From positions 1 to 7,336 of IMG/VR virus record IMGVR_UViG_2700989509_000019: 7,336 bases of DNA. One strand, given 5' to 3'. Positions 1,662 to 2,975 of this stretch are shown in pieces. Under the pieces are notes generated by a model. The model saw only the letters and a program-made list of their open reading frames with translations, had not been told where the DNA came from and made no database searches. A program made the translations under genes and the position numbers. The DNA is from a virus. Its lineage: Duplodnaviria > Heunggongvirae > Uroviricota > Caudoviricetes. Position 1 is the stretch's first letter. Each line of letters opens with the position of its first letter.

Positions 1662-2975
1662 ATGGCAGTAAAGATTTCAGGTGTACTGAAAGACGGCACA
1701 GGAAAACCGGTACAGAACTGCACAATCCAGCTGAAAGCAAAACGTAACAGCACCACGGTGGTGGTGAACACGGTGGCCTCAGAAAATCCGGATGAAGCCG
1801 GGCGTTACAGCATGGACGTTGAGTACGGTCAGTACAGCGTTATTCTGTTGGTGGAGGGATTCCCGCCGTCACATGCCGGGACCATCACCGTGTATGAAGA
1901 TTCTCAACCCGGTACGCTGAATGATTTTCTCGGTGCCATGACGGAGGATGATGCCCGTCCGGAGGCATTGCGACGTTTTGAACTGATGGTGGAAGAGGTG
2001 GCGCGTCACGCTGAGGAGGCGAAGAAGAATGCCGGAGAGGCGGAGACGTCAGCGAGGAATGCCGGCATATCAGCCAGTCAGGCAGAAGAGAGCGCTGCAA
2101 ATGCTGACACTTCAGCAGGGGAGGCATCGGAGTCAGCCCGGCAGGCGGCAGAAAGTGCAGCCTCAGCAAAGCAGTCAGAGGATGCGTCCTCGTCCTCGGC
2201 TTCTGCGGCCGCTCAAAAAGCCAGTGAGTCATCACAAAGTGCAGCAGAAGCTGAATTGTCAAGAAAGACGGCAGAAAGTGCAGCCGGTAATGCAGCCAGG
2301 GATGCAACGACCGCAACAGAAAAAGCCCGGGAGTCAGCAGAAAGCGCACAGTCAGCGGAACAAAGCAGGATAGCGGCGGAAGAGGCCGTAAACCGAATCC
2401 CCACCGTGGTGGGGCCACCCGGACCAAAGGGAGAACCGGGGCCCGCGGGTCCTCAGGGGCCGAAGGGGGATAAGGGAGAGCGTGGTGACACCGGCCCTGT
2501 CGGGGCAACCGGCGAACGGGGACCGGGAGGAGATACAGGTCCGGCAGGTCCGCAGGGGCCGAAAGGCGACAGGGGAGAGCGGGGAGAGACCGGTCTGACG
2601 GGAAATGCAGGTCCACAGGGTCCAAAGGGAGATACCGGTGCGGCAGGCCCGGCTGGCCCACAGGGACCGAAAGGAGAAACAGGTGCGGCTGGCCCGGTGG
2701 GGGCAACCGGACCTCAGGGACCGAAGGGCGACCCGGGGGAGACACAAATCCGTTTTCGTCTGGGGCCGGCGAGCATTATTGAGACAAACAGCCATGGCTG
2801 GTTCCCGGATACAGATGGTGCGCTCATCACCGGACTGACCTTTCTTGACCCCAAAGATGCCACACAGGTTCAGGGGCTGTTTCGGCATTTGCAGGTCAGG
2901 TTTGGTGACGGGCCGTGGCAGGATGTTAAGGGGCTGGATGAAGTGGGCAGTGATACAGGCAGAACAGGAGAATGA
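1662..2975 (+). CDS. stf: Side tail fibre protein (lambda Stf-like N-terminal domain, Ala/Ser/Glu-rich low-complexity stalk, collagen-like Gly-X-Y region, distinct C-terminal tip)
   Basis: The N-terminus [26 protein letters not shown].. matches my recollection of the lambda Stf N-terminus. ATG at 1662 is preferred over the GTG at 1656 used by the ORF track. About 110 residues are uninterrupted Gly-X-Y triplets. The position after J and lom is canonical for stf. Confidence 0.85.
2004..2390 (+). repeat. Low-complexity Ala/Ser/Glu-rich coding tract inside stf (probable coiled-coil or fibrous stalk)
   Basis: Translation is dominated by A, S, E, K and T with recurring SA-E-SA motifs (..[80 protein letters not shown]..). 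The GC-rich repetitive DNA also generates several long spurious ORFs in other frames. Confidence 0.7.
2412..2741 (+). repeat. Collagen-like Gly-X-Y triplet repeat region inside stf, made of imperfect direct repeats of GPQGPKGD(K/R)GERG(D/E)TG-type units
   Basis: Seen in sequence: [110 protein letters not shown]. The DNA shows recurring GGNCCNCAGGGNCCNAARGG units. Confidence 0.9.

Follow-up and report, generated by a model that had tools for sequence, protein, structure and literature searches.

The window analyzed here, a stretch of 7336 bases, comes from a lambdoid prophage, of which it forms the tail end. It contains the following genes and sites.

3 to 905, plus strand: 3′ end of gene J (central tail fibre), C-terminal 300 codons, cut by the left edge of the window (PF09327, PF12421 Ig_GpJ_C)
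938 to 1597, plus strand: lom, Ail/Lom outer-membrane protein (PF06316, E 1e-50)
1624 to 1645: terminator-like site after lom, a hairpin of 8 pairs followed by a T-run
1662 to 2975, plus strand: stf, EPclA-type collagen-like side tail fibre of 437 aa (assigned by Pfam, composition and EPclA domain lengths); protein domains PfN 1–133, PCoil stalk 134–250, Col 251–361 and PfC 363–426
2395 to 2745, plus strand: repetitive DNA encoding the collagen tract, with units of 74/99 and 45 nt that are 61–76% alike
2962 to 2979, plus strand: junction of stf and the small downstream ORF, caGGAGaaTGAcATG, with AGGAG in the 3′ end of stf, TGA, one base and ATG
2977 to 3246, plus strand: stand-alone PfC paralogue of 89 aa, the small ORF (PF06820; phrog_576)
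3266 to 3280: G+C-rich, terminator-like hairpin between the convergent small ORF (plus strand) and the 91-aa ORF and espK-like genes (minus strand)
3363 to 3638, minus strand: phrog_5398 ORF of 91 aa, convergent with the small ORF
3701 to 5062, minus strand: EspK/GogB-family type III effector of 453 aa
5442 to 5579, plus strand: tfaX-like 3′ remnant of tfa (PF02413, positions 89–130 of 131)
6124 to 6873: appY, in AT-rich DNA

The J, lom and stf genes and the small ORF are all intact, J as far as the window reaches. The DNA from lom to about codon 117 of stf (1043 to 2011) is 79% identical to lambda, and lambda homology then reappears only at 5456 to 5565, in the final 110 bases of tfa. The region of homology to phages 2B8 and cdtI spans 1511 to 3284 and ends just past the 3266–3280 hairpin, which marks the right end of the conserved stf cassette. 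Because this homology runs through to 3284, we place the small ORF in the fibre cassette and not in the variable cargo. The stf cassette was found at 7007 places in 698 of 5426 complete Escherichia coli genomes; the median copy number per genome was 11.

The stf reading frame begins with the ATG at 1662 and ends with the TGA at 2973–2975; there is also an in-frame GTG at 1656. A preliminary description of this DNA had ascribed to its product a lambda-like N-terminal attachment domain, and Pfam bore this out; PF08400 (phage_tail_N, here PfN) matched residues 1–133 (profile positions 1–133 of 134, E 7e-70), and residues 1–94 matched the N-terminal collar domain of Ur-lambda Stf (PDB 9e7m, chain Ta, E 4e-53). 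The Ala/Ser/Glu-rich stalk that it reported was also found, since the 117 residues from 134 to 250 include 37 Ala, 24 Ser and 16 Glu; we assigned this segment to PCoil by length and composition. The reported run of about 110 residues of uninterrupted Gly-X-Y proved to be 111 residues long, with Gly at each third position from residue 251 to 361. These 37 unbroken triplets, in which Pro is the main residue at the X position (18 of 37), gave a match to PF01391 (Collagen, Pfam, E 5e-17). The tip had been called short and unrelated. With 64 residues it is short, and it is unrelated to lambda Stf; however, it is no orphan, because residues 363–426 form a complete copy of a known domain, PF06820 (Phage_fiber_C, here PfC; positions 1–64 of 64, E 4e-36).

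Alignment to Stf of the viable phage lambda_2B8, which also has 437 aa, was collinear and ungapped at 96% identity, and the frameshift in the repeat region that had been considered as a possible defect was absent relative to its homologues. Over its last 189 residues, which make up Col-PfC, the window fibre shares 93% identity with the C-terminus of gp61 of phage phi24B. Nei–Gojobori dN/dS amounted to 0.115 in PfN, 0.21 in the fibre tip and 0.44 in the stalk. We conclude that the stf gene is intact and that its family is under purifying selection, so that the suggestion of a non-functional fibre finds no support at the level of the gene. Frameshifted or truncated fibres do occur in some related loci; the copy in the window is whole.

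EPclA is the commonest "EHEC prophage collagen-like protein" (Ghosh et al. 2012, PLoS One 7:e37872, PMC3368898), with a length of 437 aa, a PCoil of 116 aa and a Col of 111 aa, and is present in eight prophages of O157:H7 strains EDL933 and Sakai. The exact protein sequence of the window Stf was absent from a collection of 15 billion proteins, and we therefore regard the gene as what appears to be a new EPclA allele with few substitutions. Recombinant EPclA produced in a laboratory strain of E. coli with no phage cofactor formed a stable trimer and a true collagen triple helix with a Tm of 42°C, as determined by SEC-MALLS, CD and EM, and rotary-shadowing EM revealed a dumbbell about 55–62 nm long (PMC3368898). 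Isolated PfC trimerised, and the coiled-coil stalk (PCoil) was likewise a trimerisation module. A Col-PfC fragment refolded rapidly after melting, which argues that PfC nucleates the collagen helix (PMC3368898). Since the PfC tip and the coiled-coil stalk are the modules demonstrated in that work, the collagen tract itself would not be the driver of trimerisation. Thus the proposal in the preliminary description that the fibre self-assembles through its collagen-like module is right as to helper-free assembly, but it names the wrong module.

Related fibres have also been located on virions. The Ur-lambda tail tip carries four projecting Stf trimers, whose N-terminal domains make contact with gpV and gpM (PMC12617516). 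Cryo-EM of phi24B identified gp61 as six lateral fibres, which the authors argue are not the binder of BamA (phi24B preprint, 2026). The gp61 homologue of phage Sp5, ORF67, is essential and was immunolabelled at the tail (PMC5155283). The architecture and biochemistry of this type of fibre have been known since 2012, and the fibre itself adds nothing new.

The DNA encoding the collagen tract consists of diverged direct repeats, in which a 74-nt unit recurs at spacings of 99, 99 and 45 nt, together with a 45-nt unit. Length variation at such repeats had been anticipated, and comparison of alleles confirmed it. Related loci encode 20, 25, 26, 27, 30, 35, 36, 37 or 38 triplets, in addition to the two-tract EPclB form, and the commonest allele among them has 437 aa and 37 triplets. 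Aligned alleles differ through in-frame deletions between repeated motifs of the collagen tract; the repetitive DNA is thus a likely substrate for in-frame length variation. Variation in collagen length was already apparent in Tables 2 and 3 of Ghosh et al. (PMC3368898).

A second claim of the preliminary description, that only a 3′ remnant of tfa is present in the window, also held. The remnant corresponds to residues 140–191 of the 194 residues of lambda Tfa and lies about 2.5 kb downstream from stf, beyond the effector gene, and the window contains no intact tfa (PF02413, about 194 aa) beside stf. We surveyed 88 loci, consisting of the window and 87 related loci. Nine contained a tfa match, each of them a remnant within a stop-to-stop ORF of 29–90 codons, and none contained an intact gene. 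When full-length lambda Tfa was used as the query, the best match outside lambda spanned residues 108–193. The complete 48.8-kb genome of lambda_2B8 contains two tfa fragments and no intact tfa.

These findings could be taken to mean that a cognate chaperone has been lost, as the preliminary description assumed. We reached a different view by comparing the fibre with lambda Stf half by half. The N-terminal half (orf-401) aligns to residues 1–240 of the window fibre at 62.8% identity, whereas a tblastn search of the window with the C-terminal half (orf-314) returned nothing better than E 0.68. Stf/Tfa and gp37/gp38 are established pairs of fibre and partner, and by analogy the C-terminal half of lambda Stf would be the part on which Tfa acts. 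Distal lambda Stf has been described as structurally homologous to T4 gp37 (PMC12617516). Because the C-terminal half is absent from the window fibre, Tfa would not be needed, and none of the loci with this fibre type carries an intact tfa. The puzzle of a missing chaperone does not arise for an EPclA-type fibre.

The position of the remnant suggests another origin. Positions 1 to 5565 of the window are 98.4% identical to a prophage adjoining dusA in strain CAU16175, in which the J frame, open from the start of the window, is called gpJ (locus L001). Positions 5454 to 7336 are 99.4% identical to the right end of a cryptic DLP12-type prophage (tfa pseudogene, appY, ompT, envY), a segment with matches in 3157 of the 5426 complete E. 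coli genomes; 832 of these cover it to at least 80%. The two mosaic segments overlap by 112 bp, and the overlap falls inside the tfa remnant. Because they overlap exactly there, we read the remnant as a relic and recombination patch; it is the old tfaX relic of DLP12 at a mosaic joint and not the decayed partner of the window fibre. A correction of wider use follows. The presence of part of tfa close to a lambdoid stf is no sign of a lost chaperone, because an EPclA-type fibre has a different, self-trimerising tip.

We found that the small ORF downstream from stf also encodes PfC. Its 89-aa product contains a complete PF06820 domain (positions 1–64 of 64, E 5e-36) preceded by 27 residues; the score of 123.2 bits compares with a Pfam gathering cut-off of 25. 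The ORF belongs to phrog_576 (E 2e-60), and its product aligns with the fibre tip over 62 aa at 39% identity (E 8e-13). It had no match to PF02413 (Caudo_TAP, Tfa/gp38) at E ≤ 0.01 and none in NCBIfam. The preliminary description, which gave its length as 90 aa, missed that it is a paralogue of the fibre tip. An alternative in-frame ATG at 2938 would give a 102-aa product. The AGGAG lies 6 nt before the ATG at 2977, a normal spacing for a ribosome-binding site, and the 15-mer at the junction was identical wherever the start was located, except for a single base change at one locus. These features predict that the small ORF is co-transcribed with stf and translationally coupled to it.

The small ORF was found by tblastn in 296 phage records, mostly at 90–100% identity and in three cases at 80–90%. 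Its hosts include the long-tailed phages 2B8, cdtI, YYZ-2008 and 2851 and the short-tailed Stx2 phages 933W, Sp5 and phi24B. We picked 68 loci through the window type of fibre tip (F-type) that had enough flanking sequence, and 61 of them have an intact small ORF at the one-base spacing; in the other seven it is cut by insertions or frameshifted, in two of these within an A7 tract. The PfC part of the small ORF had a Nei–Gojobori dN/dS of 0.054 (24 alleles), compared with 0.30 for its N-terminal 27 codons. Given the value of 0.054, the small ORF is a real protein-coding gene under strong constraint, more so than the tip domain of the fibre itself. The PfC family as a whole appears to be narrow. 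An exhaustive profile search of 1.84 billion representatives at 50% identity recovered 78 members, mostly fragments. A scan of the GTDB species representatives recovered three loci, in Escherichia albertii, in a 725-bp contig labelled "Xanthomonas pisi" and in a 3.8-kb contig of a "Clostridiales" MAG; the latter two labels look doubtful for so E. coli-like a sequence.

Mondal et al. (2016, PMC5155283) reported that the homologous 89-aa ORF68 of Sp5 is non-essential on K-12. The supplement to the phi24B preprint (2026), on the proteome of purified virions, lists two peptides unique to the small protein, VITQVVILDADKK and ADGTWENIGGMK, both of which are identical in the small ORF of the window. 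Each has a value of 3 in what is presumably the spectrum-count column, a level at which contamination is possible. The authors labelled this entry "Spike or just gp59?", and their text does not discuss it. AlphaFold2 gave low-confidence, all-beta models of the small protein (mean pLDDT of 50.6 with a 7-sequence and 45.0 with a 13-sequence alignment), and structure prediction of the fibre C-terminal domain failed likewise in the phi24B preprint. A sequence search of the PDB with either PfC copy, from the fibre tip or from the small ORF, gave no significant match. Two other candidates were considered and set aside. A lipoprotein signal at the N-terminus of the small protein (MNILKKLMQRLCGCG) was rejected in that the hydrophobic stretch is too short, contains Gln and Arg and has a mean hydropathy near 0, and the second Cys varies among alleles. 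Protein P0063 was rejected as a natural fibre with a small-ORF tip; its position at the very end of a 3.3-kb contig makes it a possible product of misassembly. Chimeras between the small ORF and the fibre tip are rare.

Taken together, our reading is that the locus contains an intact EPclA-type fibre that trimerises by itself independently of Tfa, a relic tfa and a small PfC gene that belongs to the fibre cassette, to which we assign a probability of about 0.85. The domain anatomy, the intactness of the genes, the mosaic boundaries, the synteny and the selection were observed directly. According to this reading, PfC would nucleate the 37-triplet collagen helix, which would then zip up from C-terminus to N-terminus, with no Tfa required for assembly. 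The N-terminal beta-sandwich domains would form a collar attached to the tail tip, in the manner of Ur-lambda, and the PfC knob at the distal end would make the presumed contact with the cell surface, where it may bind a receptor. Helper-free trimerisation, collagen conformation, location on the virion and dispensability of the small ORF have been shown for near-identical proteins in the literature. At the level of the genome, Col-PfC, the small PfC gene and effector cargo have replaced the distal half of lambda stf and the 5′ two-thirds of tfa. The 3′ end of tfa survives as a patch of homology for recombination between prophages; in this window it connects a lambdoid tail arm with the DLP12 right end (tfaX-appY-ompT).

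Within this reading, the small PfC protein would be dispensable for infection of K-12 and may be an accessory that associates with the fibre tip. Our tentative suggestion, which we put forward as one possibility, is a structural accessory, either a second knob or a capping subunit that would dock non-covalently on the PfC trimer of the fibre. The suggestion draws on conservation, translational coupling, membership in the cassette and weak virion proteomics. In that role the small protein would tune which surface structure is bound on natural, O-antigen-bearing hosts, which would explain its published dispensability on K-12.

Other explanations of the locus were weighed against the same data. 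The preliminary description had offered the downstream ORF as a substitute for Tfa, and in favour of an obligatory assembly chaperone the small ORF lies immediately 3′ of stf, where lambda has tfa, and is translationally coupled, strictly co-inherited and strongly conserved. However, recombinant EPclA, Col-PfC and PfC trimerise without it (PMC3368898), and it does not match PF02413; because ORF68 of Sp5 is non-essential (PMC5155283), we consider an obligatory role very unlikely. Mondal et al. speculated instead that ORF68 is a reservoir for variation of the tip, that is, a silent cassette for tip swapping by recombination that yields no functional protein. Chimeric proteins are consistent with such exchange, as P0121, the third gene in locus L091, joins the N-terminus of the small ORF to a fibre-type PfC, P0063 joins collagen to the small-ORF PfC, and lambda_2B8 carries an additional 122-nt fragment of the small ORF. 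The reservoir explanation is nonetheless unlikely, since the PfC of the small ORF is under tighter constraint than that of the fibre, its ATG and AGGAG are invariant, and its peptides were detected in the phi24B virion proteome. Moreover, the 120 listed of 176 homologues, all of at most 131 aa, included no full-length fibre with a tip of the small-ORF type.

The two remaining alternatives concern the fibre gene. It could be a non-functional leftover in a prophage decaying at the DLP12 site, given that the window ends on the right in the terminus of cryptic DLP12, that some related loci have frameshifted fibres or small ORFs interrupted by insertions, and that defective copies are among those tabulated by Ghosh et al. 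(PMC3368898). Yet the window fibre is full-length, has the commonest length and aligns without gaps to the gene of a viable phage, its neighbors J and lom and the small ORF are intact along with it, and its family is under purifying selection; we regard a leftover as quite unlikely. Finally, programmed frameshifting or readthrough at the stf stop codon could fuse both ORFs to give a fibre with two tandem PfC domains. The small-ORF frame is open for about 40 codons upstream from its ATG, the stop codon is followed by C (UGA-C) and lies close to an AGGAG, the authors of the phi24B work placed hypothetical fusions in their search database, and four tandem PfC-like repeats occur in a distant relative, P0143. 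Nevertheless, the sequence ACA GGA GAA TGA C lacks a slippery heptamer, and its GAA, the codon that precedes the stop, is unable to re-pair at +1. The AGGAG overlaps the last codons of stf with the spacing of a start-site SD sequence and not that of the RF2 type (about 3 nt upstream), and Mondal et al. found no frameshift signal (PMC5155283). The examined part of the phi24B data contains the normal C-terminal peptide of the fibre and no junction peptide. Such a fusion is therefore highly improbable.

We return to the small PfC protein as a possible accessory of the fibre tip. If that suggestion is correct, the protein would represent a novel type of partner for a tail-fibre tip, one that arose by duplication of the tip domain and not from the Tfa/gp38 lineage. 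Its gene travels with the fibre tip through long- and short-tailed Shiga-toxin phages, and should it shape host range, it would bear on the spread of phages that carry Stx and effectors.

Several known systems resemble parts of this locus. NC1 and C1q-type domains and the N-terminal V domain of streptococcal Scl2, an analogy drawn by Ghosh et al. (PMC3368898) in the case of Scl2, are globular non-collagen domains that, like PfC, register three chains and nucleate the helix. They differ in that they have no sequence relation to PfC, which has only about 64 residues. Lambda (Ur-lambda) shares a homologous Stf collar domain, an Ala/Ser-rich proximal coiled coil and the position of the gene after lom. 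In contrast, its gp37-like, OmpC-binding distal half of Stf is replaced in the window by a collagen helix and a PfC knob, only some 50 codons at the 3′ end of tfa remain, with 2.5 kb of cargo between them and stf, and assembly would be independent of Tfa. By architecture and domain lengths, the window fibre corresponds to EPclA (e.g., ECs2717 of O157:H7 Sakai), with the same PfN-PCoil-Col-PfC order, 437 aa, a Col of 111 aa, a stalk of ~116 aa, a gene after J and lom in lambdoid prophages and alleles of different collagen length, and differs from it in nothing of substance beyond allelic substitutions. The lateral fibres of the short-tailed Stx2 phages (EPclB, Sp5 ORF67, 933W L0121 and phi24B gp61) share a 93% identical Col-PfC and are followed, across the same junction, by the same 89-aa PfC-only gene (ORF68 or "gp59", 93% identical). 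Unlike the window fibre, they have a Pf2 repeat between two collagen tracts, and their PfN is divergent (35% identity) and attaches to the adaptor ring of a podovirus instead of the tail tip of a siphovirus.

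By sequence comparison, the window is a mosaic of two prophage segments. Its left 5.5 kb matched a dusA-associated prophage at 98.4%, and its right 1.9 kb matched the tfaX-appY-ompT right end of the cryptic E. coli prophage DLP12 at 99.4%. The two segments overlap by 112 bp (5454-5565), inside the tfa remnant. Among the complete E. coli genomes of the collection, no record contained both segments joined at a coverage of ≥80%. The AraC-type ORF in the right segment encodes AppY, and the window's right edge takes in the beginning of ompT. The 540 bases upstream of appY (5580-6120) have a G+C content of only 24-28%, compared with 52-70% in the fibre region.

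6124-6873, plus strand, appY

Related loci also carry rearranged PfC units and tfa patches. Unequal recombination between the fibre-tip PfC and its paralogue, the small ORF directly after stf, is shown by one genome (L091 2697-2975; GCA_005381265.1), in which three consecutive PfC units correspond to the fibre, the chimera P0121 and a normal small ORF. P0121 is a 92-aa protein in which the N-terminal part of the small ORF leads into a fibre-type PfC. The viable phage lambda_2B8 (L002) contains an extra 122-nt piece of the small ORF 3′ end (91% identical) as well as two separate tfa remnants.

L002 6975-7096, small-ORF fragment in the cargo region
L002 8786-9043 and 10315-10488, tfa remnants in the cargo region

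The presence of these fragments in the cargo region points to repeated recombination at short conserved patches, namely the small ORF 3′ end and tfa. A PfC-like unit can also form a string of domains within one chain, as the distant collagen-like protein P0143 (565 aa) contains four tandem PfC-like repeats (PF06820, 57.6 bits), which precede its collagen tract.

Inspection of the small ORF revealed a candidate alternative start, an in-frame ATG (2938-2940) 13 codons upstream of the annotated one. Initiation at this codon would generate a predicted 102-aa product that overlaps the stf 3′ end; several database entries begin at this ATG or give still longer forms (102-135 aa). The early codons also contain an A7 tract.

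2987-2996, small-ORF codons 4-6 (ctaaaaaaac), A7 tract

Two IMG/VR loci (L119 and L123) have decayed small ORFs in which the frame appears to shift at about the A7 tract, a position judged from translations.

Long antisense ORFs cross the collagen-coding DNA.

1885-2745, minus strand, 286-aa ORF
2352-3314, minus strand, 320-aa ORF

We interpret these ORFs as a side effect of the Gly/Pro codon repeats, which are rich in G+C and poor in stop codons. Some deposited phage records list counterparts of them as hypothetical proteins (cdtI orf22 and phi24B vb_24B_37c); these counterparts are probably spurious.

Two genes in the cargo slot beyond the fibre cassette are convergent with it.

3701-5062, minus strand, 453-aa EspK/GogB-family type III effector
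3363-3638, minus strand, conserved 91-aa ORF (phrog_5398) downstream of the effector

The effector scored 915.7 bits against NF011913 (EspK), slightly below the cut-off of 934 bits, and is annotated as hypothetical in the closest genome. The content of this slot varies among relatives, which carry NleB or IS elements, an NleH-like protein together with Cif in phage cdtI, and EspM2 in lambda_2B8.
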